Part shown: piece after piece, positions 21,969-48,967 of the stretch
Layout: every line of letters starts with the position of its first letter
Numbering within the stretch: position 1 is the stretch's first letter
Translations under genes and position numbers: made by a program
Assembly: GCA_018651345.1 (NCBI GenBank)
Contig: JABIEF010000073.1
Location: forward strand, 7,318-71,317
Length of the DNA: 64,000 nt
Reading direction: 5' to 3'
From: Rhodobiaceae bacterium
GTDB taxonomy: Bacteria > Pseudomonadota > Alphaproteobacteria > Rhizobiales > TMED25
Notes under the pieces: generated by a model
The model's input: only the letters and a program-made list of their open reading frames with translations
The model's database searches: none
Told to the model about the DNA's origin: nothing

Positions 21969-23186
21969 ATGAAACAAGCGTACAGCATTATTATCGTCTT
22001 TAGCCTAGGCTATTTATTGGCCATAATATTTCGTTCTATTAATACAATAATTGCACCTAATTTAATCAACGATATTGGTTTAACAGCAGCGTCGTTGGGC
22101 CTATTGTCTTCATCTTTATTAATTGCACATGCAGCAGCACAAATACCTCTTGGTATTTATCTGGATAGCCATGGACCAAAAAAAGTGCAAATTGCACTAT
22201 TATCTCTGGCAGCAATTGGCTGTATTGCTTTTGCATTGAGCAATAATATTTATGTTATGACATTTGCTAGGATTCTAATGGGTGTTGGTTTTTCTGGCTG
22301 TTTGATGGCAGGTTTTAAAGCAGTTAGTATGTATTTGAAACCGAATAATTATGCTCTTGGTAATGGAATAATCATGGGAGCAGGCCAGATAGGTATTCTT
22401 ATCACAAGTTGGCCAACCGAAATAATTTTACAATACTTTAGCTGGCGCGGTGCATACGCTTTATTTATTATATTAATTTTTGTAATTATAATACTTACCT
22501 ACCTTTTTATACCTAATAATAGCACCACCAAAACAGACGAAACCTTAAAAGTGCAATTAAGCGGATTAAAAAAAGTTTTTGAAGATAAGGCTCTATGGCA
22601 CTTAGCCCCATTAATATGGATTACAGGTGGGGCACACATTGCCTTGCTCACACTCTGGACCGGCCCCTGGCTACATGATGTTGCTGGATTAGGAAGAGAG
22701 CAAGTTGCAACAAGTCTAACTATTATTGCATTATCTGTAATATCGGGAATTTTTCTTAGCGGATTAATTGCAAAGATATTAACTAAATATAACGTAAATA
22801 TCTTAAAAATTCTTCAATACATATTAATTGTCAATATATTCTCATTAATACCATTATTCCTTATAAATCATAAAATAGCATTTTATACTTGGATTATCTT
22901 CGCCATGACAGGACAAGGTGGGATACTTTCTTACCCTTGGATTACGGAAAGATTTGGCTTATCGTTATCTTCTAGAGCTAATACGGTGGTAAATCTTGGA
23001 ACATTCGTAGTCGCATTTTTTATACAGTATTTGATTGGTGTAATTATAGACTTATTCCCATTAACTGCCGATGGCCAATATAATCCAGATGCATATAAAA
23101 TGAGTTTCTTCTTTATCTTTACATTACAAATCTTAATTCTATTATGGTTTTTTAAAGGAAAAAAATATTTAAATTTAAATAAATAA
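21969..23186 (+). CDS. MFS transporter, substrate unknown
   Basis: About 12 hydrophobic segments; motif A-like GIYLDSHGPKK. Confidence 0.85.
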   Translation: MKQAYSIIIVFSLGYLLAIIFRSINTIIAPNLINDIGLTAASLGLLSSSLLIAHAAAQIPLGIYLDSHGPKKVQIALLSLAAIGCIAFALSNNIYVMTFARILMGVGFSGCLMAGFKAVSMYLKPNNYALGNGIIMGAGQIGILITSWPTEIILQYFSWRGAYALFIILIFVIIILTYLFIPNNSTTKTDETLKVQLSGLKKVFEDKALWHLAPLIWITGGAHIALLTLWTGPWLHDVAGLGREQVATSLTIIALSVISGIFLSGLIAKILTKYNVNILKILQYILIVNIFSLIPLFLINHKIAFYTWIIFAMTGQGGILSYPWITERFGLSLSSRANTVVNLGTFVVAFFIQYLIGVIIDLFPLTADGQYNPDAYKMSFFFIFTLQILILLWFFKGKKYLNLNK

Positions 23187-24474: not shown

Positions 24475-25497
24475 TTATTTAATTTTATTTAATAGTAATT
24501 CTAAATTTGATGGGTCTAGTTTTATTTCGCCACTATGTGTCATCTTCGCTATTTCAACAACTGCGTCGTTATAAGGCGTTGGAATACCTAATTTTTTTCC
24601 TTCTTCTGAAACTCTACCATTGATAAATTCTATCTCACTTCTTCTATCTTTAGCATGGTCCTGAGCTGCATGCGTACGGGCGTTAGGGCCAACATCATTA
24701 ACCATTCGCTTCATGACTAATTCAGCCGCACCTTCTCCAGCATTTCCTATTTCATCTGTTGTAAGGCCAAATAACGGTTCTATCATATGACCTAGAGCTT
24801 GTCCTACCTTAAAAGACTCTTTTCCTACACCCACAGAAAAATCAAACATACCAGGTAATTTTATAGCTTCCCAATTTTTAAGATTTAATGACGAAAAAGG
24901 ACAGGTCATTGAATTAGCTATTAACTTAGTCCATTTAGCTCCATAAATATTATCAGTAATATCACAATTTCCAACAAGTTTCATTAATGATTGAATCTCT
25001 AATAATCTTTCAGTTTTACTGCCATCTAATTCACCAACAGCAAACCATGTACCTGTAGGAACGGTATTACGTTGAACAATTCCTGGAATAAATGCTTCAC
25101 AACTTAATTCAACTACAGAACCTATTATTCTATCTCTACCAATCATTTCTGCATTTAAATCATCGTTAAATGCATTTTGTAGTCCAATTAATGTGCCAGT
25201 GTCCCTTAAATAGACGCTAGCATATTTTGCCATCCATTGCGTATCATAAGACTTAACAGCCATAAATATATAATCAAACTTTGGCTCAAAAGTGGCTAAA
25301 TCACTCAAATGGAAAGCGTTAACTTTTCTTGTTTTGTCTTCTTCTTTAGTAATAACACGCAAACCATCTGATTTAATTTTATTTATATGGTCAGCCCATT
25401 GATCAACCAATGTTATATCACATCCTGCATCAGTCATTGAAGCAGAAACACATGATCCTATACCACCGGCACCCAAGATACATATTTTTTTATTCAT
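24475..25497 (-). CDS. Ketopantoate-reductase-family (PanE/ApbA-like) oxidoreductase
   Basis: GAGGIG, AVKSYD, LQN, WTKLIAN, QD...RRSEIEFING. Confidence 0.88.
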   Translation of the reverse strand: MNKKICILGAGGIGSCVSASMTDAGCDITLVDQWADHINKIKSDGLRVITKEEDKTRKVNAFHLSDLATFEPKFDYIFMAVKSYDTQWMAKYASVYLRDTGTLIGLQNAFNDDLNAEMIGRDRIIGSVVELSCEAFIPGIVQRNTVPTGTWFAVGELDGSKTERLLEIQSLMKLVGNCDITDNIYGAKWTKLIANSMTCPFSSLNLKNWEAIKLPGMFDFSVGVGKESFKVGQALGHMIEPLFGLTTDEIGNAGEGAAELVMKRMVNDVGPNARTHAAQDHAKDRRSEIEFINGRVSEEGKKLGIPTPYNDAVVEIAKMTHSGEIKLDPSNLELLLNKIK

Positions 25498-25553: not shown

Positions 25554-28313
25554 TTATTCAGCTAAGCTAATTTTAGCAGCTGAGAATTTAAATTCAGGTA
25601 TTTTTGCTGCAGGATCAAGCCTGGAACTTGTTAGCACATTGGCGGCTGCTTCTGTATAACAAAATGGAACAAACACTACTCCCTCCGGAACATCAGGGTC
25701 TTGCCTTGCATTCATTATAATTTTACCTCGACGCGTTGATATCGTAACTTTGTTACCTGGATATATATTAAATTTTTCCATATCATACTTATTTAAACAA
25801 ATAATAGGATCCGGTTCAATAGAATTTAATATGCTTGCCCTTCTAGTCATTGCCCCAGTATGCCAATGCTCTAGAAGCCGTCCAGTCGTTAGTACCATTG
25901 GATAGTCCTGATCAGGAGTCTCAGCTGGAGGAACTATGGATGTGGGGACTATTAATGCTCTACCATCTTTTGTAGGAAATTTATCACCAAATAATATATC
26001 TTCACCATCGCTATCTGGAGATAGACATGGATATGTAACAGATTCTTCTATAACCAACCTTTCCCAAGTAATATTATCCAGAGAGCCCATAATTTCAGAC
26101 ATTTCTTTAAAAATATCTTTTGGGTGAGTATACTTCCAATCAAGTCCTATATGCCTTGCCAACTCAGTTATTATATACCAATCTTCCTTTGCATTAGCTG
26201 GCGGCTTAACAACCTGCCTACCAATTTGAATTTGTCTATTCGTATTAGTATAAGTTCCCCATTTTTCTGCATGAGTTGAAGCTGGAAAAATAACATCTGC
26301 ATTCCAAGCAGTCTCAGTAAGAAATATTTCTTGAACAACAAGGAAATCAAGAGCAGCGATTGCTTTACGAGTATGCACTGTATCCGGATCTGACATTGCC
26401 GGGTTTTCACCTAGAATAAACATTGCTTTTATATTAGAGGCATGAATTTCATTAATAATTTCAACTGCAGTAAGACCAGATTCATTACTTAAATCTTTAC
26501 CCCAAAATTCTTGGTACATTTTTCTAACCAATTCATCTTGAACAGAGTTGTAGTCAGGATATACCATTGGTATGAGTCCAGCATCTGAAGCCCCTTGTAC
26601 ATTATTTTGTCCACGCAAAGGATGAAGACCTGTACCATCTTTACCAATATGTCCTGATATTAAAGCTAATGAGATCAAGCATCTAGCATTTTCAGTTCCG
26701 TGAATATGCTGTGAAATTCCCATACCCCAAAAGATAATTGATTTATCTGATTTAGCATATAACCTTGCTATATCTATGATTACAGATGCTTTTATACCGC
26801 ATATTTTTTCCATATTCTTAGGTGAAAAATCTTTTGTCTCTTCAACAAGATTGTCAAATCCTATTGTTCTATTTTTTACGAAATTAGTATCGTATAATTT
26901 TTCTTTAATAATTGTATGAATCATAGCATTTAGCAATGCTAAATCTTGCCCAGGTTTAAATTGAATGATATGTTCAGCATATTTTGCTAAACCTTGTTTT
27001 TGTCCCCTTGGATCAATCAATATTAATTTTGAACCCTTTTTTATAGCATTTTTTATATACGTAGAAGCAACGGGGTGATTTTCTGAAGGCCTTGCCCCAA
27101 TAACAATAATACAATCTGATTTGAGTGCATCAGTAAATGGAGCTGTTACAGCTGCAGAATTCAGAGATTCCATTAAAGCAAAAACAGAAGAGGCGTGACA
27201 AAGGCGAGTGCAGTGGTCTACATTATTCGATACAAAGCCTTGCCGAATTAATTTTTGGAATAAATAAGCTTCTTCATTCGAACATTTTGCAGAGCCAAAT
27301 CCAGCAATACTTTTGCCGCCATATTGATCAGATATTTTCTTTAAATTTTTAGCAGCTAAACTTAGAGCTTCTTCCCATGAGGCTTCGCGGAAATAATCTT
27401 TTATATTAGAATTATCTATCTTCAAATCAAAACTCTTAGTATTGCTATCTATTCTTATTAAAGGTGATAATAACCTGTCTGGATGAGATATATAATCAAA
27501 ACCAAATCTACCCTTTACGCATAAACGACTTTCATTTGATGGGCCATCTCTTCCATCAATTGATATTATTTTGTTACCCTTTACCTTAACGTTTGTTTGA
27601 CAACCAACTCCACAAAAAGGACACAAAGTATCTACGCTTCTATCTGGATAATGCTCCCTAACATTTGATTTGTTTAGTAAATTTGATTCCATTAATGCGC
27701 CAGTAGGGCAAACTTGAACACATTCTCCACATGAAACACATGTGGATTCACCTAATTCACTATCTAAATCAAATACAATTTTTGACTTACTTCCTCTGTA
27801 AGCCATACCAATAACATCATTCACCTGAACCTCTCTACAAGCCTGTACACACAAATTACAATTGATACAAGAATCGAGATTGACTGTAATTGCTTGGTGT
27901 GAATTATCAACAACAGGCTTGGGCGTAGTCGGGAATCTAGAGCTTACATTACCATTAATTGCAGATGCCCATTTTAATAAATTTGACTGAAGATCGTGAG
28001 CTGATGAATTTTTAGGTTGGTCTGTCATTAGTAATTCAAAGACCATACTTCTTGCTTTCTTAGACCTGGCAGAATTAGTATCAATTTCCATGCCCTCAGC
28101 TGGCTTTCTAATGCATGAGGCTACAAGATTTCTTTCACCTTTTATTTCAACCATGCAGGCTCTGCAATTACCATCTGCTTCGTATCCAGATTGCGTTGAG
28201 TAACATAAATGAGGTATATCAATATCCATCCTTTTAGATATCTCCCAAATAGATTCATCCTTAGAAGCGGTTACCTCTTGATTATTTATTTTAAATTTTA
28301 CGTACTTATTGAT
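25554..28313 (-). CDS. NAD-linked formate dehydrogenase alpha subunit (Cys-type Mo/W-bis-PGD); proposed ATC start at 28313
   Basis: IPHLC..GNCRAC 2Fe-2S domain, two ferredoxin 4Fe-4S motifs, CPFCGVGC, DHCTRLCH active site, LRGQNNVQG. The frame extends 28 codons upstream of the track's ATG (28229) to an in-frame TGA. Confidence 0.93.
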   Translation of the reverse strand: MNKYVKFKINNQEVTASKDESIWEISKRMDIDIPHLCYSTQSGYEADGNCRACMVEIKGERNLVASCIRKPAEGMEIDTNSARSKKARSMVFELLMTDQPKNSSAHDLQSNLLKWASAINGNVSSRFPTTPKPVVDNSHQAITVNLDSCINCNLCVQACREVQVNDVIGMAYRGSKSKIVFDLDSELGESTCVSCGECVQVCPTGALMESNLLNKSNVREHYPDRSVDTLCPFCGVGCQTNVKVKGNKIISIDGRDGPSNESRLCVKGRFGFDYISHPDRLLSPLIRIDSNTKSFDLKIDNSNIKDYFREASWEEALSLAAKNLKKISDQYGGKSIAGFGSAKCSNEEAYLFQKLIRQGFVSNNVDHCTRLCHASSVFALMESLNSAAVTAPFTDALKSDCIIVIGARPSENHPVASTYIKNAIKKGSKLILIDPRGQKQGLAKYAEHIIQFKPGQDLALLNAMIHTIIKEKLYDTNFVKNRTIGFDNLVEETKDFSPKNMEKICGIKASVIIDIARLYAKSDKSIIFWGMGISQHIHGTENARCLISLALISGHIGKDGTGLHPLRGQNNVQGASDAGLIPMVYPDYNSVQDELVRKMYQEFWGKDLSNESGLTAVEIINEIHASNIKAMFILGENPAMSDPDTVHTRKAIAALDFLVVQEIFLTETAWNADVIFPASTHAEKWGTYTNTNRQIQIGRQVVKPPANAKEDWYIITELARHIGLDWKYTHPKDIFKEMSEIMGSLDNITWERLVIEESVTYPCLSPDSDGEDILFGDKFPTKDGRALIVPTSIVPPAETPDQDYPMVLTTGRLLEHWHTGAMTRRASILNSIEPDPIICLNKYDMEKFNIYPGNKVTISTRRGKIIMNARQDPDVPEGVVFVPFCYTEAAANVLTSSRLDPAAKIPEFKFSAAKISLAE

Positions 28314-29976
28314 TGGTCAACTCCGGAAAATACTTAATAATAGAAAGCAGAGGATTTGGAGCTGCTTGCCCCAATCCGCATATAGACGCTTCACTCATAA
28401 CACTAGCTAAATCATTTAATAATTCTATATCCCATACTTGTTTTTTCATTAAATTTAAGGCTTTTTCTGTCCCAACGCGACAAGGGGTACATTGACCACA
28501 ACTCTCGTGCTCAAAGAAATCCATCAAATTTATTGCTATATCCTTTATATTATCAGCATCTGATAATATAACCACTGCATGGGATCCTACAAAACACCCA
28601 TATTTAGATAAATTATTAAAATCCAAAGGGATATCCGCCAAACGAGATGGAAGGATGCCCCCTGAAGCACCACCTGGAAGATATCCTGTAAATTCATGAT
28701 CTTCCAATATGCCACCCGAATATTCGTCAATTAATTGATTAGCAGTTACACCTGCAGGTACTATTTTAATACCAGGATTTCTTACTCTACCGGAAACAGA
28801 ATAAGTTCTTAAACCCTTAGAACCATTGATACCTTTATTCGCAAACCATTCGGATCCATTTTTCAATATCATAGGTATCCAATATAATGTTTCAACATTA
28901 TTAACTAAAGTTGGCTTGCCGAAGATCCCAACATCAGCAACATATGGTGGTCTATGCCTAGGAAATCCTTTTTTGCCTTCAATAGATTCAATCATTGCAG
29001 ACTCTTCACCGCAGACGTAAGATCCAGCTCCACGTTTAATTTCTATTTCTATATTCTTATTAATTCCGCTTTTTTCAAGCTCCTTTATCTCATTCTTTAA
29101 TATCTGTAATGCCGCTGGATATTCATCTCTTATGTATATGTATATTTTCTCAGCTTTAACAGTCCAAGCAGCTATCAACATTCCCTCTATGAATGAGCAT
29201 GGATTATTCTCAAGATAATATTTATCCTTAAATGTTCCAGGCTCTCCTTCATCGGCATTAACGGCCAAATATTTTGGTCCATCTTTTTTTAATAAAATTT
29301 CCCACTTAACTCCCGTTGGGAATCCAGCTCCACCTAATCCTCTAAGATTAGCATCTTTTAAAATAGATATTATCTGCTCATCTGTAATTGTGCCATTTAA
29401 ACAATTTTGGAACACAGTATACCCTGAATCTTTTACATATGCAGCGTGGTTTATATAATTAGGAATTACAAGTTTATAGTTATCGTTATTAATATGTGCG
29501 TTAACTTTTTCTTGCGTTGCTGATTCGATGTGCAGTTTATTAACCTCACAAACAGGGGCTTTGTCACACCTGCCCATGCATGGAGCCTTTACCACTCTAT
29601 AACCAGAAGCAGATGATTCCTTTAAATCATTATATAGATTTTCGCTATCAAACATATGGCACGTTACAGAATTACAAACTCTAATAGTCTGAACAGTCAA
29701 CCTGTCATCTAAATCAGAAATAATATCAAAATGAGCATAAAATGATGCAACTTCTAATGTTTCAGCCATTGGTATGCGTAACAAATCAGCTAGTGCATGC
29801 AAATTACCATAAGTAACGCAATGAAACTCATCTTGAATTAAGTGAAGATACTCTATTAAGTCCTCCCTCTTATATACAGACAACCCTAGAAAATTCGATA
29901 ACTCTTCTCTCTCAGAATCCTTTAGTAGCCGACCTTTTGTATAACCTTTTTTAGGTTTATCTTTATCGCGCATCAT
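28306..29976 (-). CDS. Formate dehydrogenase beta subunit (NuoE-NuoF fusion, Fdh1B-type)
   Basis: LIEYLHLIQD, SFYAHFD, RVC.S.TC, PCMGRCD; LRGLGGAGFPTG.KW, NADEGEPGTFKD, ESCGQCTPCR, SICGLG. Confidence 0.92.
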   Translation of the reverse strand: MMRDKDKPKKGYTKGRLLKDSEREELSNFLGLSVYKREDLIEYLHLIQDEFHCVTYGNLHALADLLRIPMAETLEVASFYAHFDIISDLDDRLTVQTIRVCNSVTCHMFDSENLYNDLKESSASGYRVVKAPCMGRCDKAPVCEVNKLHIESATQEKVNAHINNDNYKLVIPNYINHAAYVKDSGYTVFQNCLNGTITDEQIISILKDANLRGLGGAGFPTGVKWEILLKKDGPKYLAVNADEGEPGTFKDKYYLENNPCSFIEGMLIAAWTVKAEKIYIYIRDEYPAALQILKNEIKELEKSGINKNIEIEIKRGAGSYVCGEESAMIESIEGKKGFPRHRPPYVADVGIFGKPTLVNNVETLYWIPMILKNGSEWFANKGINGSKGLRTYSVSGRVRNPGIKIVPAGVTANQLIDEYSGGILEDHEFTGYLPGGASGGILPSRLADIPLDFNNLSKYGCFVGSHAVVILSDADNIKDIAINLMDFFEHESCGQCTPCRVGTEKALNLMKKQVWDIELLNDLASVMSEASICGLGQAAPNPLLSIIKYFPELTNQ

Positions 29977-30042: not shown

Positions 30043-31719
30043 TTAAAACAAACCTTCTATATTTCCAGATATATCTAATTTTATAGATTCTGCTGCAGGC
30101 TTTCTTGGAAGACCAGGCATTGTCATTATGTCACCAGCAATAGCAACTATGAAACCTGCTCCAGCCGATAGCCTGACATCTTTTATTTCGATTTTATGCC
30201 CAATAGGTGCATTTTTTAATTTTGGATCTGTAGAAAAAGAGTATTGTGTCTTAGCCATACATATAGGGAAATGACCATAACCCAAATTCTCCCAGTCTTT
30301 TAGTTGATTGATAACTCTTGCTGAGAGAAAAACTTCAGAAGCTCTATATATATCTGCAGTTATCTTTTTAATTTTATCTACTAACAACATATCATTATCA
30401 TAAAGTAAATTAAAGTTTGAAGTGTCTTCGTCACAAATTCTAACAACTTCCTTTGCTAAGACCTCTATGCCCTCGCTTCCATCAGACCAGTGAGATGCAA
30501 CAATAACCTTGCAATCAAAATCTTTTAATCTCTTTGACACAATGTCTAATTCCGAATCTGAATCTTTAGTAAACTTATTAATAGACACAACCACCTCTAC
30601 ACCAAATTTTTTCATATTATCAATATGCTGGATTAAATTATCGCATCCCCTTTCTACAGCTCCAACATTCTCTGCCCCTAAATCATTTACTGTTACGCCA
30701 CCATGCATTTTTAATGCTCTAATCGTCGCAACAATAACAACTGCAGATGGTTGGACTCCCATACTCCTACACTTAATATCAAAGAATTTCTCAGCCCCTA
30801 AATCAGCTCCAAAGCCAGCTTCAGTAACAACATAATCTGCCATCTTTAATGCCGTATCTGTAGCAATTACAGAATTACAACCATGGGCTATATTTGCAAA
30901 AGGACCACCATGTACAAAGGCTGGGTTATTTTCTAGAGTTTGTACAATATTAGGCATAAAAGCATCCTTCAATAAAACTGCCATTGCATCATTCGCTTTT
31001 AATTGCCTTGCAGTTATAGGTTTTTTATCCCTTGTGTAAGCTACAACTATATTTCCTAACCTTTCGGTTAAATCTTCCAGATCATTTGCTAGGCAGAATA
31101 TAGCCATAACCTCTGAAGCAACCGTTATGTCAAATCCATCGTTTCTAGAAAATCCATTCGAGACACCCCCCAGAGAAGAAACTATTTCTCTAAGAGCTCT
31201 ATCGTTCATATCAACAACTCTCCTAATCACAACACGTCTTGAATCTATGTTTAAATCGTTCCCCCAATATATGTGATTGTCGACCATAGCGCACAACAAA
31301 TTATGAGCTACTCCAATTGCGTGAAAATCTCCGGTAAAATGCAAATTGATATCTTCCATTGGAATAACTTGCGCTTTACCTCCTCCGGCTGCACCGCCTT
31401 TCATGCCAAAACATGGACCAAGAGAAGGTTCTCTGATGCATATAAGCGCTTTTTTCCCTATTTTATTTAATCCGTCCCCTAAACCAACGGTTGTTGTAGT
31501 TTTTCCTTCACCTGCAGGAGTCGGTGTAATAGCGGTAACTAAAATAAGTTTACCTTTTTTATTATCCTTAATTTTTTTAATAAAATCTTCTGATATCTTT
31601 GCTTTATATTTTCCATATAAAGACAACATATCAGATTGTATTCCAATATTACTTGCTACCTCTGTAATAGGTTTTATATCGGCTTCTCTTGCTATCTCTA
31701 TATCTGTTTTAACTACCAT
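30043..31719 (-). CDS. fhs: Formate--tetrahydrofolate ligase
   Basis: [54 protein letters not shown]. Confidence 0.97.
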
Positions 31720-31743
31720 TTAATTTCTTTCGTATTTATATTA

Positions 31744-32652
31744 TTATTCAAATTTATCGCCAATTTTTATTTTATTATCTTTAATATAATCATTAGCAGA
31801 TATTTTCTCTTTATTTACCCTTAATTTTTTTATTAGTATAGAATTTTGACCTGTAGCAACTACAAAACCATCATTATTTACATTGACTATCTCTCCGCTA
31901 TTCCCAGTCAAATCTGAATGAGCAGCATCGTAGACTTTTACTTCAACACCATTTAATGTGGTCCATGCACCAGGTTGAGGGTTACTTGCCCTTATTTGAT
32001 TATATATTGAGTGAGCAGAATTATTCCAATCTATTTTTGATTCAGGCCTGCCAAACCACGATTCATAGCTTCCACTTTGTTTTTCCTGGTATAATTTTGG
32101 TGCAATACCAGTTTCAATCAATTCAATCGATTCTGCAATAGCCTCAACGCCTAGTGGAAATAACTTATTAAAATATAACGACCCTAAAGTATCATCCGAA
32201 CTAATATCACAATATTTTTGTAGCAAAATAGGGCCTGTATCTAGCCCATCATCTGGCCAAAATATCGTTATTCCAGTTTTTTTCTCACCATTATATATCG
32301 GCCAATTAATTGACGAAGGTCCTTTATGCATTGGCAATATGGAAGGATGGTATTGAATCGTGCCATATGTTGGTTCATCTAATACGGCCTTTGGAACCAT
32401 TAATAAAACATAAGCCATTATGCATAAGTCTGCTTCAAATGATTTTATCTTCTCTAATGCCTCTGGAGTTTTCCAACTTGAAGGTTGGTAAACTGGCAAA
32501 TCCTTCTCTCTTGCCAGCTCCACAAGAGGGTCAATTTTTGTATTTTCCTTATCTGGTGCCGAGCATACTGCAACAATATCTTTATTATTTTCTAATAAAT
32601 TCTCTAACACCGCTTTGCCAAAAGCTTGTTGCCCATGTAAAATAATTTTCAT
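31744..32652 (-). CDS. Stand-alone 10-formyl-THF-dependent formyltransferase/hydrolase (Fmt fold, ALDH1L1 N-domain-like)
   Basis: GQQAFG, PDK...DPL, QYHPSILP.HKG.S.INW, IFWPDDGLDTG, DT..SLY...LFP.G, PGAWT. Confidence 0.8.
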   Translation of the reverse strand: MKIILHGQQAFGKAVLENLLENNKDIVAVCSAPDKENTKIDPLVELAREKDLPVYQPSSWKTPEALEKIKSFEADLCIMAYVLLMVPKAVLDEPTYGTIQYHPSILPMHKGPSSINWPIYNGEKKTGITIFWPDDGLDTGPILLQKYCDISSDDTLGSLYFNKLFPLGVEAIAESIELIETGIAPKLYQEKQSGSYESWFGRPESKIDWNNSAHSIYNQIRASNPQPGAWTTLNGVEVKVYDAAHSDLTGNSGEIVNVNNDGFVVATGQNSILIKKLRVNKEKISANDYIKDNKIKIGDKFE

Positions 32653-32662
32653 AAAAACCTAC

Positions 32663-33919
32663 TTATTTATCGCCCAATGCACCGGAAGATTGTATTAAAT
32701 TTATTTTATCCTCATTATAACCAAGAAGGTCTTGTAATATTTCAATGTTGTGCTCACCAAGCAACGGAGACCTTTCAACGTCAACAGGGGATTCGGATAA
32801 TTTAATTGGACAACCAACTGATAAATATTTTCCTCTTTCTGGATGATCTATTTCGACAATAGTTCCAGTATCACGCAAAGATTGATCTTCAGAAATTTCT
32901 TTCATAGACAAAATTGGTCCGCATGGAATACCTTCTGGATCACATAATTCAGTAACCTCATACTTCGTTTTTGTTTTTGTCCAATCTTCTATGGTTTCAA
33001 AAATTTCAGTCAATTTATCTAATCTTGAAGCTGGCGTGCTATAACCTTTGTCATTTACCCATTCTAGTTTATTGATTAATTTACATATCTTTTCCCAAAC
33101 TGGGGCTTGAGTTATAAAATAAACATATGAATTAGGATCATTTTCCCAACCCTTACATTTTAAAATCCAACCCGGTTGACCGCCTCCAGAATCGTTTCCA
33201 GCGCGAGGAGTTGAAGTACCGAATGGGATTCCTTTTCCATATTGACTGTATTCTGTTAAAGGCCCTTTTTCCAATCGTTGTTGGTCCCTTAATTTGACAC
33301 GACAAAGATTAATTACGCCATCCTGCATAGAAGCCGAAACCTTCTGTCCTTTTTTAGTCTTCTCCCGCTGAAATAATGCGGTAACAATTCCTAACGCAAG
33401 GTGCAAACCTGTTCCAGAATCACCAATTTGTGCTCCAGTAACTAGAGGTGGCCCATCTAAGAATCCAGTTGTTGCAGCAGCTCCACCAGTACATTGAGCT
33501 ATATTTTCATAAACTTTACAATCCTCGTAAGGTCCTGGCCCAAATCCCTTTATTGAAGCAACAATAATCTTATCATTAAGTTTTTGTATATACTCCCAAG
33601 GGAAGCCCATTCTATCAAGAGCTCCTGGCGAAAAATTTTCAACCATAACATCAGATTTTGCAATAAGATCTTCTAATACCTTCTTGCCCTCGGCTGTTTT
33701 TGTGTTAAGAGTAATAGATTTTTTATTGTGATTTAACATAGTAAAATACAAGGAATCCACGTTATCAATGTCTCTTAACTGACTTCGTGTTGCATCTCCG
33801 ATTCCTGGCCGCTCTAATTTTATGACATCAGCACCAAACCAAGCTAGCAATTGTGTGCAAGTAGGTCCTGACTGTACGTGAGTAAAGTCTAATATTTTTA
33901 TACCCTGCAAAGCTTTCAT
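32663..33919 (-). CDS. frc: Formyl-CoA transferase (family III CoA-transferase)
   Basis: [34 protein letters not shown] (catalytic Asp), [10 protein letters not shown] glycine loop. Confidence 0.93.
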
Positions 33920-33940: not shown

Positions 33941-35674
33941 TTATTTATACATTGTTTGTGATTTTGTTCCAGGAGCGTATTCATTAGGATCAACCCATAT
34001 ATTAACAACAACAGATTTGTTTTGTTTCTTTACAAAATTTCTCGCCATTATTAAAGCGTCTGCTATCTTATCAGATTCTGTAACGTCTATTCCAAATCCA
34101 CCCCAAATATTTGGAAATACAGAAAAATCCATATCGCCTAATTTATTAGCAATATTTCCTCTTTGTTGGCCGTATTTTGATAGCTGTCCATATCTAATTT
34201 GATTCATAGATGAATTATTTCCTATTACGGCAATGTAAGGAGCACCAAATCTATCTGCTGTCTCCATATCGAAAGCTGTCATACCAAAGGATCCATCGCC
34301 ATAATAACAAAGAACTTCTTTATGAGGATCTGCTAATTTTGCAGAAATGGCAAATCCTGTACCAACACCTAAGCTTCCTAAAGCACCAGGATCCATCCAT
34401 TGTCCTGGACCTTTAGGTCTAACTGCTTGAGCAGAGATAGTAACAACATCTCCGCCATCACCAATAAATATAGTATCTTCATTCAAAAAATTATTAATCT
34501 CATAAGCTACTCGATAAGGATGAATAGGACTATTGTTAGATGTAAATAAAGGCAATAATTTTTCATACTTAACTTTTTCAAGATCTCTGAGCTTACCTAT
34601 CCACTCAGATCGTTTCTTTTTAATCTCAGTGCTGATACCATCTGGCAATAAACGGCTAATTTGTTCCAAAACAGTTCCAGGATGACCTAAAATACCAATA
34701 TCGATATCTCTATTCTTTCCTAAGGTCCCATAATTCTGATCGATCTGAATTAACTTAACGTTATCTGATATCCTTTTACCGTATCCCATTCTAAAATCAA
34801 ACGGTGTACCAACTATGATTATTACATCAGCTTCCTTAAATGCATCTGATCTCGTTCTATCGAAACAATATTGATCGTTATTATCAATCATGCCCCTACT
34901 GGCGCCGTTAGCATAGGATGGTATCATTGCTTTTGTTATAAATTCTATAGCCTCATTATGGCTCCTTGAGCTCCAAACTTGTTGCCCAAACAAGATTGCT
35001 GGCCTTTCAGCTGCTGATAATATTTCAGCAACTTTTATAATGTCCTGAGGATCACCAGAATTTTTAATTGAGGCTCTGTATGAGCCAGGATTTGGAATAA
35101 CAACCGATTCCATAGGTACTTCTTTATCCAGGACATCACGAGGAATTTCTAGATAAGACGGACCATAGGATCCGTTAAAACATTCTCTTGCTGCCATCGC
35201 AACCATATCAGCAATTCTTTCTGTTGACATCACGGTAGATGCAAATTTTGTTATAGGCTTTGCAATATCAACATGGGGTAAGTCTTGAAGGCCGCCCATC
35301 TTCCATTGGCTAAGAGCACTTTGTCCTCCAATATGCAAAACAGGACTCTCGGACCTGAAAGCAGTCGCTATTCCAGTTATTGCATTTGTAAAACCTGGAC
35401 CTGCAGTTGTAACGACGCATCCTAGCTTTCCAGTTTGCCTTGCGTATCCATCAGCAGCATGTGCTGCAGTTTGCTCATGCCTAACATCAATTATTCTTAT
35501 TCCCTCATCAATACATCCATCATATATATCTATAATATGTCCACCACATAGCGTAAAAATAGTATCGACACCTTCATTTTTTAGCGCTTTAGCAACTAAA
35601 TGTCCTCCTGAAATCATAGAGCCGTCAGTTGTTTTTTTCTTTAATATATCTTTAGTGCTAATGCCCATGTTCAA
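33941..35674 (-). CDS. ThDP-dependent enzyme of the OXC/HACL/ILVBL group (putative formyl-CoA-producing decarboxylase or lyase)
   Basis: LCGGHI, VRHEQTAAHAADG, TAGPG, DFRMGYG, MDPGALGSLGVG, ThDP motif GDGSFG...NN; directly upstream of frc. Confidence 0.8.
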   Translation of the reverse strand: MNMGISTKDILKKKTTDGSMISGGHLVAKALKNEGVDTIFTLCGGHIIDIYDGCIDEGIRIIDVRHEQTAAHAADGYARQTGKLGCVVTTAGPGFTNAITGIATAFRSESPVLHIGGQSALSQWKMGGLQDLPHVDIAKPITKFASTVMSTERIADMVAMAARECFNGSYGPSYLEIPRDVLDKEVPMESVVIPNPGSYRASIKNSGDPQDIIKVAEILSAAERPAILFGQQVWSSRSHNEAIEFITKAMIPSYANGASRGMIDNNDQYCFDRTRSDAFKEADVIIIVGTPFDFRMGYGKRISDNVKLIQIDQNYGTLGKNRDIDIGILGHPGTVLEQISRLLPDGISTEIKKKRSEWIGKLRDLEKVKYEKLLPLFTSNNSPIHPYRVAYEINNFLNEDTIFIGDGGDVVTISAQAVRPKGPGQWMDPGALGSLGVGTGFAISAKLADPHKEVLCYYGDGSFGMTAFDMETADRFGAPYIAVIGNNSSMNQIRYGQLSKYGQQRGNIANKLGDMDFSVFPNIWGGFGIDVTESDKIADALIMARNFVKKQNKSVVVNIWVDPNEYAPGTKSQTMYK

Positions 35675-35714: not shown

Positions 35715-36029
35715 TTATTTTATAGGAGAGAAATTAGTTCCAACCATTATCTTATCTTCTTGAGCGGTAATCATACCAGCAATCTTTTGCCTATAAACAG
35801 CCCATTCAGGATCCGCATCTCTTTTTTCTCTAAGATTTTCAAACTCTTCCATATTTTTATATTGCCATATATGAACAACCTGATTCAACTGCCCTACCTT
35901 ACTAATTAGGTATGCAACCAATTGTAGTCCATGTTTTTGTGCAACTGGATTAGCAACAGTTTCGAATATTTCAACATATGCATTCATTTTACCCGGTTGT
36001 ATTGTATACGTTCTGTGGTCGAATATCAT
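35715..36029 (-). CDS. NIPSNAP-family protein
   Basis: RTYT..PG, GQLNQVVHIW.Y, R..RDADPEW, FSP; GGAG SD. Confidence 0.9.
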   Translation of the reverse strand: MIFDHRTYTIQPGKMNAYVEIFETVANPVAQKHGLQLVAYLISKVGQLNQVVHIWQYKNMEEFENLREKRDADPEWAVYRQKIAGMITAQEDKIMVGTNFSPIK

Positions 36030-36148: not shown

Positions 36149-37786
36149 ATGGACTTTAATCTAAGTGGAAAACAACTTAATTTAAAAGAAAAAATAGAGG
36201 GGAAAGATGCCTATGACGCAATAGTAATTGGGTCAGGTTTTGCTGGTGTTTATATGTTGTATCAACTTAGAAAAATAGGTTTATCAGCTATTGTTTTAGA
36301 GAAAGCTTGTGGAGTTGGGGGAACTTGGTTTTGGAATAAATATCCTGGAGCGAGATGTGATACCGAAAGCCTACAATACTCATACCAATTCTCAGAAGAA
36401 TTACAGCAAGAATGGGAATGGACTGAAAAATACGCTACACAACCAGAAATCTTAAAATACATTAATCATGTGGTGGACAGATTTGATTTAAGAAAAGATA
36501 TTAAATTAGAAACAAAAATAAAAAAAATAATTTATAATGATAAAAAAGAAATATGGTCAATATATTCTACAAAAAAACAATATACAGCTCAGTTTTGTAT
36601 AATGGCAACCGGCTGTTTATCGACACCAAACAAACCTAACATACCTGGATTAGAAGAATTTAAAGGAGAAGTGTATCAGACTTCTTTATGGCCAGATAAA
36701 AAAATTTCATTTACAAATAAAAATATTGCTGTAATTGGAACAGGATCATCTGCAATGCAAGCAATTCCAATAATATCAGAAACTGCAAAAAATCTTTATG
36801 TTTTTCAGAGAACCGCAAATTATGCAGTACCTGCTCATAATAGGGAATTAAATCCAAAAGAAGTAATAAATTTTAAAAAAAATTATAAAAAAAATAGAGA
36901 AAAAGCAAAAAAATTAGCTAGTGGATTTTTAACAAATTATAATGATAAATCTGCTCTTCAGGTTTCTAAAGATGAGCTAAAAAATGAATACGATAAAAGA
37001 TGGGAGAAAGGTGGACTTGCTTTTCTTGCAGCGTTTACTGATATCACAATTGATGAGAAGGCTAATAAAACAACCTCAAACTATATTGAAAAAAAAATTC
37101 GTGAAACAGTTTCTGATAAAAAAATAGCAAAATTATTAACGCCAAATTCGATAGTTGGGTGCAAAAGATTGGTAATAGACACAGACTATTATAAAACCTT
37201 CAATAACAATAATGTTTATCTATTTAATGCGAAAAAATATCCAATTTTAAAAATTGATAAAACTCAAATTTATACTGCAGAAAATACTAAAAGTGTTGAT
37301 ATGATTATCTTAGCTACAGGTTTCGATGCAATGACGGGGGCGATGAAACAAATTGATATAGTAGGTAGAAATAATATAAGCTTGGAATCCAAATGGAAAA
37401 ATGGCCCAAAACTCTACCTTGGATTAGCAATAAACGGATTCCCTAATTTTTTTACAATAACTGGCCCAGGAAGTCCTTCTGTATTAACTAATATGGTACC
37501 TACAATTGAACAGCATGTAAATTGGATAGCTCAATGCCTTATCTATATGAAAAAAAAATCTCTATCGACGATCGAAACTACACTTGATGCTGAAAATAAG
37601 TGGGTAGCTTATAATGAAAGAACTGCAAGAAATACACTAAGATATAATTGTAAATCTTGGTATTTAGGATCAAATATAAAAGGTAAAAAAAGAATTTTTA
37701 TGCCTTTTGTTGGAGGATTACCATTATACATTAAGAAATGCGAAGAAATAGTCGCCAATGATTATGCGGGATTTGAAATAAATTAA
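36149..37786 (+). CDS. Type I Baeyer-Villiger monooxygenase (CHMO/PAMO-like)
   Basis: GSGFAG and GTGSSA Rossmann motifs, GGTWFWNKYPGARCD, fingerprint FKGEVYQTSLWP, GCKR, ATGFDA, SWYLGSN. Confidence 0.92.
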   Translation: MDFNLSGKQLNLKEKIEGKDAYDAIVIGSGFAGVYMLYQLRKIGLSAIVLEKACGVGGTWFWNKYPGARCDTESLQYSYQFSEELQQEWEWTEKYATQPEILKYINHVVDRFDLRKDIKLETKIKKIIYNDKKEIWSIYSTKKQYTAQFCIMATGCLSTPNKPNIPGLEEFKGEVYQTSLWPDKKISFTNKNIAVIGTGSSAMQAIPIISETAKNLYVFQRTANYAVPAHNRELNPKEVINFKKNYKKNREKAKKLASGFLTNYNDKSALQVSKDELKNEYDKRWEKGGLAFLAAFTDITIDEKANKTTSNYIEKKIRETVSDKKIAKLLTPNSIVGCKRLVIDTDYYKTFNNNNVYLFNAKKYPILKIDKTQIYTAENTKSVDMIILATGFDAMTGAMKQIDIVGRNNISLESKWKNGPKLYLGLAINGFPNFFTITGPGSPSVLTNMVPTIEQHVNWIAQCLIYMKKKSLSTIETTLDAENKWVAYNERTARNTLRYNCKSWYLGSNIKGKKRIFMPFVGGLPLYIKKCEEIVANDYAGFEIN

Positions 37787-37803
37787 TAATTAAGGTTAAT
37801 AAT

Positions 37804-39219
37804 ATGCAATTAAATGAATATAAATCCTATGACGCTACTGACTTAGCAAAAATAGTAAAAAATAAAGATATCCATCCTAAGGAGTTACTTGATTTAGCAA
37901 TAAGTTCAATAGAGAGCGAAGATAAAACTATTTCTGCAGTAGTCATAAAAGCTTATGACGCAGCTAATAAAACTATCGAAAACGGAATTCCTAATGGGCC
38001 ATTTGCAGGGGTTCCTTTTTTATTAAAAGATTTAAATGTATCCTATAAAGGCTTACCAACAACGTTATCCAGCAAGTTATTCCAGAGTAATATTGCAAAA
38101 CATGACAGCGGTCTGGTCAAACAATATAAAGATGCTGGATTAATAATATTAGGACTAACAAAAACTCCAGAACTAGCCTTGTCGTTAACAACCGAACCTG
38201 TATTAAATGGACCAACAAGAAATCCTTTAAATATAGAATATTCACCAGGTGGTTCATCAGGCGGATCTGCAGCAGCAATTATTGCTGGCTATGTGCCGAT
38301 GGCACATGGAACAGACGGCGGTGGGAGTATTAGAGTACCAGCTTCATTATGCGGACTCTTCGGATTGAAGCCATCTCGTGGAAGAATTTCATATTACCCT
38401 GACCTTGGAGAAGGCCTAGGTGGAATGGCTACAAGCCATTGTCTTTCAAAAAGCGTTAGAGATAGTGCAACTTTACTTGATATTTCCTCTAACATATTAC
38501 CCGGTGACCCTTATGTCGCTCCTAAAAATAATGATAAATTTTCTAAAGCCGCAGAAACAGATCCTAAGAAATTAAAAATTGCAATTTGCACAACTGATTT
38601 TGAAGGAAATAAAATTAACAATGAATCTGTTTTAAACACATTGAAAACTGGAAAGTTATGTGAAGATCTCGGTCATATCGTAGAGGAAGCGTACCCTGAT
38701 TTAAGTGACCTGCCTATATTAAAAGCATGGAAAATTCTTCCTGGAATAAATCTTTTAAACAACCTAACAAAAAGATCTGAATTTCTTGGTGTTAAAATTA
38801 AAGACACAGATGTTGAACCACTTCATTGGTCCTGGATGGAAGAAGCAAAACAATATACTGCCATTGATTACTTAAATGCAATGAATACAATGCATTTAAT
38901 AGGAAGGCGTATTGGAGATTTCCTTCAAGGGTACGATCTAATATTAACACCTACGTTAGCAAAACCAGATCTAAAACTTGGTAAAATAAAAACAGACCAT
39001 ACCGATGTTGACAAACAATTAAATTATTTATTTAAAGAATTTTCTCCTTATACGGCAGTTTTTAATCAATCGGGTGGAGCTGCGATGTCATTACCTTTAT
39101 GGACTTCAAGTAAGGGGCTGCCGATAGGAATGCATTTTGGAGGAAAGCTTGGTGATGAAGAGAAACTCATTCAGCTGGCAGGGCAATTTGAAAGATCCTA
39201 TTCATGGAATATGACTTGA
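37804..39219 (+). CDS. Amidase-signature family enzyme
   Basis: GVPFLLKDL, PGGSSGGSAAA, GTDGGGSIRVPAS (Lys-cisSer-Ser triad). Confidence 0.92.
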   Translation: MQLNEYKSYDATDLAKIVKNKDIHPKELLDLAISSIESEDKTISAVVIKAYDAANKTIENGIPNGPFAGVPFLLKDLNVSYKGLPTTLSSKLFQSNIAKHDSGLVKQYKDAGLIILGLTKTPELALSLTTEPVLNGPTRNPLNIEYSPGGSSGGSAAAIIAGYVPMAHGTDGGGSIRVPASLCGLFGLKPSRGRISYYPDLGEGLGGMATSHCLSKSVRDSATLLDISSNILPGDPYVAPKNNDKFSKAAETDPKKLKIAICTTDFEGNKINNESVLNTLKTGKLCEDLGHIVEEAYPDLSDLPILKAWKILPGINLLNNLTKRSEFLGVKIKDTDVEPLHWSWMEEAKQYTAIDYLNAMNTMHLIGRRIGDFLQGYDLILTPTLAKPDLKLGKIKTDHTDVDKQLNYLFKEFSPYTAVFNQSGGAAMSLPLWTSSKGLPIGMHFGGKLGDEEKLIQLAGQFERSYSWNMT

Positions 39220-47515: not shown

Positions 47516-48967
47516 ATGAGTAAGAATGTTGTGAATAATAGGGAGGGTTATGCGTACCCTGATCAAAACATAATGAATTTATTTTGTGGAATAGTGGGCG
47601 ATTCAAATGTTTTATTAGATGAAAATGATATGCAATCATTTCTATCGGAGCCAAGGAATTTATATAAGGCAAAAGCGGCATGCGTAATTAAGCCAAGTTC
47701 AGTATTAGAGATTAGTAACATACTAAAAATAGCAAACGATAATAATATTGCAATAGTCCCCCAAGGTGGCAATACCGGATTAGTTGGCGGACAAGTGCCC
47801 TACGATAAAGGCAATGAAGTCATTTTGTCGCTTTCCAGGTTAAATAAATTAAGAGCGATTGATATAAGTACAAATTCTATAACAATAGAAGCCGGCATGA
47901 CCTTGGATAAAGTACAAAAATTAGCAGATGAAAACGATAGGTTATTCCCCCTAAGTCTAGGATCAGAAGGTTCCTGTCAAATTGGTGGCAATCTTGCAAC
48001 TAATGCAGGTGGTACAGCGGTTATTGAATACGGTAACACCAGAGAGCTAACTTTAGGGCTAGAGGTAGTGTTAGCAGACGGGAAGATATTAAATGGATTA
48101 AAAAGTTTAAGGAAAGATAATACTGGCTATGATCTTAAAAATATATTTATAGGAAGCGAAGGAACTCTTGGTATAATTACAGCTGCAACGATGAAATTAT
48201 TTCCAAAACCTAAAAACATAATTAGTACTTTTGTATCTTTAAGTAACTTAAATGCAGCCGTTGATTTATTAAATTTTCTACGCGAAGAAACTATGAATAA
48301 GATCACGAGTTTTGAATTAATGCCAAAGATTGGAATTGAATTAGTTCAAAAGCATAAACCAAATATAAATATTCCGTTAAAAGATCTCAATGATTGGTCT
48401 GCTTTAATTGAATTTTCCTCCAATAGCACACTAGATTCAGCAAGAGATGATTTAGAGAATACTCTTTTTAAAGCTATCAATGAAAACTATATAACCGATT
48501 GTATAATTGCAGAATCCATATCTCAATCAATGGATTTTTGGAGAATAAGACATTTTATTGTTGAAGTTCAAGCTTATGAAGGCGGGAGCATTAAACATGA
48601 TATTTCTATTCCAATTGCAAAAATACCTCAATTTATTAATGAAGCAAATAATATTGCAGAATCTGTATACCCCTCATCTCGCCCTATTCCCTTTGGGCAC
48701 ATTGGAGATGGTAATATTCATTATAATATTACCCAACCAATAAATGAAAATACAGATAAATTCATGGAAAAATGGCATGATATGTCTAGTAAAGTGCATG
48801 ATCTAGTTGTTAAGCTAAATGGTTCTATTAGCGCGGAGCATGGAATTGGTAGAATGAAAAGGGATGAATTATATGAAAGATCTGATTCTACCAAAAATTA
48901 TATAATGAAGAATATAAAGAATGCATTAGATGCAAGAGGAATCCTTAATCCAGGAAAAGTATTGTAA
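47516..48967 (+). CDS. FAD-binding D-2-hydroxyacid dehydrogenase (D2HGDH/GlcD-like)
   Basis: PQGGNTGLVGG, GGNLATNAGG, LRKDNTGYDL, GHIGDGNIH, SAEHGIG, LNPGKV. Confidence 0.9.
   Translation: MSKNVVNNREGYAYPDQNIMNLFCGIVGDSNVLLDENDMQSFLSEPRNLYKAKAACVIKPSSVLEISNILKIANDNNIAIVPQGGNTGLVGGQVPYDKGNEVILSLSRLNKLRAIDISTNSITIEAGMTLDKVQKLADENDRLFPLSLGSEGSCQIGGNLATNAGGTAVIEYGNTRELTLGLEVVLADGKILNGLKSLRKDNTGYDLKNIFIGSEGTLGIITAATMKLFPKPKNIISTFVSLSNLNAAVDLLNFLREETMNKITSFELMPKIGIELVQKHKPNINIPLKDLNDWSALIEFSSNSTLDSARDDLENTLFKAINENYITDCIIAESISQSMDFWRIRHFIVEVQAYEGGSIKHDISIPIAKIPQFINEANNIAESVYPSSRPIPFGHIGDGNIHYNITQPINENTDKFMEKWHDMSSKVHDLVVKLNGSISAEHGIGRMKRDELYERSDSTKNYIMKNIKNALDARGILNPGKVL

Follow-up and report, generated by a model that had tools for sequence, protein, structure and literature searches.

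How the cycle formed by formyl-CoA transferase (Frc) and oxalyl-CoA decarboxylase (OXC) is primed is known for Escherichia coli, through YfdE, and not for most oxalate degraders. YfdE is an acetyl-CoA:oxalate coenzyme A (CoA)-transferase, which supplies the first oxalyl-CoA/formyl-CoA of the E. coli cycle (PMC3720670). Formyl-CoA can also be drawn from the folate pool. LctF, which is encoded in the lactacystin cluster of Streptomyces lactacystinicus and is 32% identical to Met-tRNA formyltransferases, was reported in 2025 to convert 10-N-formyl-tetrahydrofolate (10-N-formyl-THF) and CoA into free formyl-CoA in vitro, as detected by liquid chromatography-mass spectrometry (PMC11730586). For the N-domain of HypX, formyl transfer from N10-formyl-THF to CoA was proposed from structures (PMC6802093) and has since been demonstrated, according to a review (PMC12134894). 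In ALDH1L1, the formyl acceptor is a carrier-bound pantetheine thiol (PMC8748788). The zebrafish N-domain, Nt-FDH, has His106 and Asp142 as catalytic residues and Phe89, Arg114 and Tyr200 as further key residues, and its hydrolase reaction requires the thiol beta-mercaptoethanol, which is bound where the formyl group sits; in the full enzyme, the authors suggest, beta-mercaptoethanol is replaced by the thiol of 4'-phosphopantetheine (PMC4388273). Here, we describe a 302-aa protein of the methionyl-tRNA formyltransferase (Fmt) fold encoded in a 64,000-nt stretch of DNA (the window, whose positions serve as coordinates) from Rhodobiaceae bacterium (GCA_018651345.1, contig JABIEF010000073.1). We call this protein and its family FmtL and propose, with a probability of roughly 65%, that FmtL is a reversible 10-formyl-THF:CoA formyltransferase.

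The FmtL gene is situated between frc and the formate-tetrahydrofolate ligase gene, fhs, with 10 bases separating it from the end of frc and 24 bases from the start of fhs, as read in the DNA, and its open reading frame (ORF) is flanked by stops on both sides. The translation contains GQQAFG, PDK..DPL, QYHPSILP, IFWPDDGLDTG and LFPLG. The best NCBIfam match of FmtL was the Fmt model TIGR00460, with a score of 177.3 bits against a cut-off of 201.5, and the PurU model TIGR00655 matched residues 64-159 only, with 22.8 bits against a cut-off of 285.95. In a phmmer search of Protein Data Bank (PDB) sequences, the N-domains of ALDH1L1 from zebrafish, human and rat scored 213.1, 191.8 and 191.3 bits, as compared to 162.2 bits for the best Fmt, 76.7 for ArnA and 57.8 for HypX. 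A preliminary description of this DNA had reported the gene with these same gaps, had quoted the five motifs (the last as LFP.G), had found the hallmarks of Fmt wanting and had pointed out a likeness to the ALDH1L1 N-domain. The coordinates and DNA, the translation, the alignment described next and the phmmer scores agree with these four points. A separate def-fmt-truA locus, which that description had wanted confirmed, is present on another contig (C32), and the Fmt encoded there scored 264.9 bits, above the cut-off.

In alignment A2, both of the true Fmt rows carried a basic 'R..GRG.K' insertion loop, which we take to serve tRNA recognition, together with the N-x-H motif. FmtL and ALDH1L were without the loop and had Q/I-Y-H instead of N-x-H. 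Residues were then compared among 38 FmtL, 16 ALDH1L-type and 13 Fmt rows. His102, Asp138, Tyr196 and Arg110 were kept in all three groups, with Lys at position 110 in the window FmtL and Arg in 95% of the FmtL rows; these FmtL residues (His102, Asp138, Tyr196, Arg/Lys110) correspond to His106, Asp142, Tyr200 and Arg114 of zebrafish Nt-FDH. Position 100 was Asn in 13/13 Fmt, Gln in 97% of the 38 FmtL and mostly Ile in ALDH1L, and many residues were common to FmtL and ALDH1L only. Position 85, the counterpart of the key residue Phe89, was Met in the window FmtL. In alignment A1, which has 22 relatives with 76% mean column identity, at least 90% of the rows had Phe there.

A quick maximum-likelihood tree was built from 97 rows, five short rows having been dropped beforehand. 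FmtL, the ALDH1L N-domains and allied stand-alone proteins formed one clade of 83 rows apart from Fmt, with a Shimodaira-Hasegawa-like approximate likelihood ratio (SH-aLRT) support of 100, as the phylogeny called for in the preliminary description was to decide. The ALDH1L N-domains made up a clade of 16 rows (SH-aLRT 100) and the FmtL set one of 53 rows (SH-aLRT 95); FmtL fell outside the ALDH1L clade, and this quick tree gave no sister order between the two. An AlphaFold model of FmtL, with 22 family members as input, showed the two-subdomain Fmt fold at a mean confidence (pLDDT) of 88.1. In Foldseek, the ALDH1L1 N-domain ranked first, yet Fmt structures were level with it, so that the fold did not separate the two. 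Identification of FmtL as a HypX was rejected, as FmtL carries only PF00551 and PF02911, has no C-terminal enoyl-CoA-hydratase-like domain and shares only the 57.8 bits noted above. Together, the sequence comparisons support the assignment of FmtL to the ALDH1L1-N-like, putatively thiol-using branch of the Fmt fold, and not as a second Fmt.

FmtL is a large and highly conserved family of proteobacterial proteins. A word-indexed protein search found 7513 relatives at E ≤ 1e-20 among 8000 scored candidates. The best 120 were mostly 302-306 aa long and 55-62% identical to FmtL, with a few close ones at 80-100%, and every name given among these 120 was 'methionyl-tRNA formyltransferase', which is almost certainly wrong for the family. 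Two FmtL-specific peptides matched at least 600 stretches in contigs representing one genome per species, at least 587 of which encoded a relative. Among the cultured organisms with FmtL are Filomicrobium insigne (L016), Rhabdonatronobacter sediminivivens (L035), Aurantimonas marina (L056), strain BAL199 (L079) and Breoghania sp. L-A4 (P0047).

To describe the gene neighbourhood, we used 81 loci from Alpha- and Gammaproteobacteria, namely the best 80 of the at least 600 stretches and locus L004. Neighbours were counted by tblastn with the window proteins, because ORF clustering of the high-GC loci yielded false ORFs on the antisense strand (of the five largest nameless clusters, three had no Pfam match); denominators are the loci with enough flanking DNA. 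Frc was encoded directly upstream of FmtL on the same strand in 72/74 loci, Fhs directly downstream in 46/64, and a thiamine pyrophosphate (TPP) enzyme of the OXC/2-hydroxyacyl-CoA lyase (HACL) type directly before Frc in 61/63. These figures, together with the fusion proteins described below, bear out the link between FmtL homologues and formyl-CoA genes on which the preliminary description had staked its proposal. The TPP enzyme was of the window type in 28 of the 63 loci (61-76% identical) and of another type in 33 (~25% identical); four sampled proteins of the latter type were canonical OXC, with 967-1001 bits on TIGR03254 (cut-off 739). Both TPP types are presumably able to release formyl-CoA. 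The two loci without Frc upstream, L059 and L086, still adjoin genes for CoA enzymes, a SucCD-like pair and an enoyl-CoA hydratase, respectively. Among other neighbours were GntR/FCD regulators (49 loci), TctA (33), TctB (25) and TctC (28), SucC-like subunits of ADP-forming CoA ligases (15) and PanE/ApbA reductases (10).

Two details of these neighbourhoods deserve mention. SucC/SucD-like genes near frc-fmtL clusters (L016:2239-3423, L059:4603-6650 and 13 further loci) score 355 bits, just under the succinate-CoA ligase cut-off of 370, and could encode a dicarboxylate-CoA ligase of the same pathway. At L086:6110-7923, FmtL occurs without frc and is divergent from the gene for enoyl-CoA hydratase. 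HypX is a fusion of these two domain types, and their pairing here may be a coincidence.

We also asked whether FmtL and Frc occur in the same genomes. In 401 genomes drawn evenly from the class of the window organism, with FmtL defined by a profile match at E ≤ 1e-60, 32 genomes had FmtL, 38 had Frc over its cut-off and 28 had both; without the unpublished genome G240, these counts were 31, 37 and 27. In a second class, centred on the L012 genome, 300 genomes were scored and one could not be. Five of them contained FmtL at ≥380 bits, and these were exactly the five with Frc over cut-off; the two genes were adjacent in four of the five. The independent figure is 4/299, because the centre genome was chosen for having the feature. 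Matches of 205-211 bits in seven other genomes of this class were ordinary Fmt. No p-value is attached to these counts, because related genomes are not independent. The co-occurrence with frc that the preliminary description had wanted tested was found in both classes. The YfdE-type model NF008511 was over cut-off in one of the 401 genomes, G069, in which Frc is present and FmtL absent.

Further evidence comes from fusion proteins. In 38 protein clusters (P0122-P0160 without P0124), a full FmtL is joined to a full Fhs in a predicted protein of ~878-898 aa, as confirmed by Pfam in four clusters; P0154 and P0157 are shorter and end within Fhs. The linker, which leads into the start of Fhs, has ~25-45 residues, is rich in Pro, Ala and Lys and is alike across clusters. 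One cluster member was found on 56 contigs, the longest of 3.16 Mb, and another is an NCBI protein from a metagenome-assembled genome, named formate-tetrahydrofolate ligase. Five sampled fusions formed one clade in the quick tree (SH-aLRT 99). The fusion of FmtL to Fhs is thus argued from predicted proteins: from the linker kept across them, from how many clusters there are and from the name of one NCBI record. A fusion of another kind is seen in P0166, a single EukProt record of a transcript from the diplonemid Namystynia karyoxenos, in which FmtL (residues 12-291) precedes an OXC/HACL-type TPP enzyme (368-902), the reverse of the bacterial gene order. Among PDB sequences, an OXC matched best, with 458 bits.

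Other candidates from the fusion search were set aside. P0161 and P0165, which appeared as Frc-FmtL fusions, contain only the last third of Frc, and P0176 (a CobT-type domain with FmtL), P0168, P0171 and others look like artefacts of gene calling or frameshifts; none was used as evidence. At L102:4298-6937, fmtL and fhs lie in the same frame with one stop between them and, being 80% identical to P0393, are closely related to the fused forms. The L102 FmtL ends in a short Pro/Ala/Lys tail that resembles the start of the fusion linker; to judge by its appearance, the locus has either split recently or is on the way to fusion.

The neighbours of FmtL, its co-occurrence with Frc and its fusions form the pattern expected of an enzyme with 10-formyl-THF and (formyl-)CoA as substrates. 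We infer that CoA is the acceptor and that the reaction is reversible. FmtL would move the formyl group between N10-formyl-THF and the free CoA thiol (10-formyl-THF + CoA <-> THF + formyl-CoA), with catalysis by the His/Asp pair common to the Fmt fold. Fhs and FmtL would then constitute a two-step, THF-mediated, ADP-forming synthetase (formate + ATP + CoA <-> formyl-CoA + ADP + Pi), a reaction that, judging from free energies, should be near equilibrium overall. Since Frc and the decarboxylase recycle a single thioester, their cycle would halt if formyl-CoA were hydrolysed or oxalyl-CoA drained. In the forward direction, Fhs and FmtL would prime and refill the cycle of Frc and the TPP decarboxylase. 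Oxalyl-CoA might be withdrawn by a reductase of the PanE2/ApbA2 type, and the pair would repay the loss at the cost of one ATP.

Several observations weigh against this proposal. The FmtL sequence shows no sign of CoA binding, and making formyl-CoA out of 10-formyl-THF probably runs somewhat uphill, again judging from free energies. The isolated N-domain of ALDH1L1 is described as a hydrolase (PMC4388273). The window genome has no PurU over cut-off (the best match, which looks like PurN, has 109.5 bits as compared to 285.95), so that a hydrolase role for FmtL would fill a gap. At the DNA level, no FmtL-Fhs fusion was recovered: three collection scans with the fused proteins as queries returned only unfused neighbours, and 23 of the 23 distinct loci that matched both halves have a stop after FmtL. 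As the TPP enzyme encoded in the window differs from canonical OXC, this operon is tied to oxalate only indirectly, and oxalate is its presumed substrate.

The genome samples hold further points of this kind. Four of the 32 FmtL genomes in the first sample have no Frc over cut-off; G143 and G375 are fragmented, with truncated matches, G283 has only a Frc-like match of 396 bits, and G312, a complete genome, has only Frc-like matches of at most 443 bits. Conversely, 10 of the 38 Frc-positive genomes lack FmtL, which is therefore not obligatory for the cycle. Where both are present, FmtL adjoins Frc in only 16/28 genomes, and the other 12 copies are found in varied contexts in which formyl-CoA genes are not obvious. 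We inspected 11 of these 12 copies (all but that of G240) and three of the four copies without Frc over cut-off. These 14 were 42-51% identical to the window FmtL; Fhs adjoined FmtL in four of them (L090, L097, L100 and L101), and in L089 FmtL was beside an acyl-CoA dehydrogenase and an ADP-forming acyl-CoA synthetase. In two, a gene for pterin-4a-carbinolamine dehydratase adjoins a distant FmtL (L091:9263-9592 and L092:2443-2769; 48-50% identical), with an ABC exporter nearby; the role of this distant subfamily may be another one, linked to pterins.

In which direction the reaction runs in vivo has to be considered as well, since on the evidence the reverse is equally possible. That the module as a whole works mainly in reverse in this streamlined marine bacterium seems rather unlikely to us. 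Formyl-CoA released by the TPP enzyme would then be passed by FmtL to THF, Fhs would yield formate and ATP, and formate dehydrogenase (FDH) would take the electrons. Such operation would fit an operon with FDH and a PanE-like enzyme and a genome in which no malate synthase, and no glyoxylate carboligase or PurU over cut-off, was found. If true, substrate-level phosphorylation would conserve the energy of the formyl-CoA thioester. Oxidation of oxalyl-CoA, glyoxylate or 2-hydroxyacyl-CoA would then include a step that yields ATP and has so far gone unrecognised, the work of a free-living bacterial sister family of the animal ALDH1L1 N-domain.

It is improbable, in our view, that FmtL is a 10-formyl-THF hydrolase that replaces PurU, releasing formate and freeing THF when much formate flows through Fhs and loads the pool of folate. 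Its nearest relatives of solved structure do bear the name of hydrolase domains (PMC4388273), PurU is missing over its cut-off, and the Fhs of the operon is the sole PF01268 match in the genome. However, a hydrolase fused to Fhs would make a futile ATPase, which renders a plain hydrolase hard to reconcile with the 38 fusion clusters, and hydrolysis leaves both the adjacency to Frc (72/74) and the genome-wide co-occurrence unexplained. The hydrolase activity of the ALDH1L1 N-domain, moreover, is itself thiol-requiring (PMC4388273).

An acceptor other than CoA, such as holo-AcpP, 4'-phosphopantetheine, glutathione or an amine substrate of the pathway, is quite improbable. ALDH1L1 works with a carrier-bound pantetheine thiol (PMC8748788), amines are formylated by most of the Fmt-fold enzymes among the PDB matches, and the 12 of 28 copies in the class sample that lie away from Frc have the varied contexts described above. 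In contrast, the conserved cluster includes no gene for a carrier, an aldehyde dehydrogenase (ALDH) or an S-formylglutathione hydrolase, the one PP-binding match in the whole genome is an open frame of 83 aa, and the constant partners of FmtL make or use formyl-CoA. Free or bound CoA is accepted by this fold in LctF and HypX (PMC11730586, PMC12134894). The family scan found no acyl carrier protein (ACP) or ALDH gene in the operon, in keeping with the earlier remark that none is nearby.

Finally, that FmtL is a second methionyl-tRNA formyltransferase, as its public annotation has it and as its best NCBIfam match and the Foldseek tie with Fmt structures might suggest, is extremely improbable given its score under the curated cut-off, its missing insertion loop and N-x-H Asn, its separate clade and the def-fmt-truA locus elsewhere in the genome.

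The FmtL gene belongs to a run of eight genes on the minus strand with intergenic gaps of 10 to 76 bases, according to the ORF list.

Table 1. Genes of the run that contains FmtL, in order of transcription (window coordinates).
Feature	Position	Strand	Remarks
NIPSNAP-family gene	35715..36029	-	First of run; PF07978, 93.3 bits
TPP enzyme, OXC/HACL superfamily	33941..35674	-	Below every NCBIfam cut-off; presumed formyl-CoA producer
Frc, formyl-CoA transferase, 418 aa	32663..33919	-	TIGR03253, 702.8 bits (cut-off 504.2)
FmtL, 302 aa, candidate 10-formyl-THF:CoA formyltransferase	31744..32652	-	PF00551 + PF02911
Fhs, formate-tetrahydrofolate ligase, 558 aa	30043..31719	-	NF010030, 900.2 bits (cut-off 652)
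FDH diaphorase subunit, NuoE-like + NuoF-like fusion	28306..29976	-	PF01257, PF01512, PF10589; nuoF_fam 400 bits, below cut-off
FDH alpha subunit (molybdopterin)	25554..28229	-	TIGR01591, 746.3 bits (cut-off 666.25)
PanE/ApbA-family reductase	24475..25497	-	Last of run; PF02558 + PF08546; below NCBIfam cut-offs

The TPP enzyme of the window scored 413.6 bits on PRK05858 (cut-off 587), 345.2 on the HACL model (600) and 241.6 on the OXC model (557). Its best PDB match was the actinobacterial 2-hydroxyacyl-CoA lyase 7pt3 (264.7 bits), and OXC structures scored 144-237 bits; its assignment as a canonical oxalyl-CoA decarboxylase was rejected on these grounds. In L009, L026 and L031, a gene 74-76% identical to that for the PanE/ApbA reductase likewise follows Fhs. 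By analogy, the reductase is possibly a CoA-acylating glyoxylate dehydrogenase/oxalyl-CoA reductase, a type for which PanE2/ApbA2 provides a precedent (PMC7486775). The genome has no malate synthase match and no glyoxylate carboligase over cut-off; glyoxylate, if made, seems to be without the usual assimilation routes there. A GlcD-like FAD oxidase is encoded at 47516-48967 (+), 12 kb from the operon, with 283 bits against a cut-off of 568.

In the diaphorase subunit, a NuoE-like 2Fe-2S thioredoxin-like domain and a NuoF-like FMN/4Fe-4S module are joined in one protein of 556 aa. The NIPSNAP gene product, of 104 aa, has no NCBIfam match and is found in the same place in L004, L009, L026 and L031 at 75-95% identity. 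Divergent from the operon, at 36149-39219 (+), are genes for a Baeyer-Villiger-type flavin monooxygenase and an amidase. Both recur at this place in L026 and L031, and in L009 the amidase gene does so too; one can only guess at a tie to the pathway, e.g. through an amide from which the acid substrate is made. A major facilitator superfamily transporter encoded at 21969-23186 matched no oxalate:formate antiporter model.

The source genome has a size of 1.53 Mb and a completeness of 98.8%, and the G+C content of the window is ~32%. DNA of the operon was detected in 14 marine or seawater metagenome runs, with at least half of the sampled words present. Contigs from RNA libraries of three studies span the frc/fmtL junction, and one further contig lies inside fmtL; this evidence is weak, because such contigs do not demonstrate a single transcript, and the parts of fmtL that they leave uncovered carry no information. 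Promoter and terminator scans gave 43 and 10 matches, no better than shuffled sequences with 53.7 ± 8.0 and 6.5 ± 2.4.

If FmtL has the proposed activity, a folate-to-CoA formyl bridge beside Fhs would answer how the cycle is started and topped up in a large group of organisms (at least 587 species genomes). It would also join two pools of activated formate in central metabolism, the folate-bound and the CoA-bound. Synthetic HACL-based assimilation routes take formyl-CoA as their C1 donor, and formate is activated in them by promiscuous acyl-CoA synthetases or by formate kinase and Pta. The Fhs-FmtL pair would, if the proposal is true, represent a natural formate-activating route at the cost of one ATP. 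In addition, the FmtL family places the origin of the N-domain of ALDH1L1 in a bacterial context.

How FmtL differs from the known systems can be summarised as follows. YfdE, which supplies the same cycle, is a family III CoA-transferase and, unlike FmtL, spends acetyl-CoA and uses neither folate nor ATP. Fmt (TIGR00460) has the PF00551 + PF02911 fold and the same folate donor as FmtL; in contrast to FmtL, it has the presumed tRNA-recognition loop and the N-x-H Asn and belongs to a separate clade. The closest solved relative of FmtL is the N-domain of ALDH1L1/ALDH1L2 (213 bits). Both have the two-subdomain fold with its key His, Asp, Tyr and Arg, both have lost the insertion loop, and they agree in many signature residues. 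However, ALDH1L1 is a 902-aa fusion with carrier and ALDH domains that oxidises the formyl group to CO2, whereas FmtL is a stand-alone protein with Gln100 (mostly Ile in ALDH1L) and without the 5-residue insertion after Trp60.

The remaining two systems are those in which the chemistry itself has been described. The N-domain of HypX (HoxX), which serves CO-ligand synthesis for O2-tolerant [NiFe] hydrogenase, has the Fmt fold and His/Asp catalysis in common with FmtL and is distant from it (57.8 bits, TM-score ~0.70). Unlike FmtL, it forms a fusion with an enoyl-CoA-hydratase-like decarbonylase, keeps CoA and formyl-CoA bound and leads to CO as the product. LctF (LC830955), like FmtL, is a stand-alone Fmt-like protein, and its reaction is the one proposed for FmtL; in contrast to FmtL, it acts in secondary metabolism, where it loads a polyketide synthase, and has no link to Frc, OXC or Fhs. 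The statement in the preliminary description that no characterised enzyme has this activity is accordingly outdated, as LctF (PMC11730586) and the HypX N-domain show the chemistry. In the literature searched, which lies outside subscription journals and supplements, we found no stand-alone Fmt-like gene described in frc/oxc/fhs clusters and, for oxalate or central C1 metabolism, no bridge that carries formyl groups between folate and CoA. With FmtL, for which the activity is predicted from sequence, a known reaction would thus appear in a different and much larger family and in a new physiological setting.

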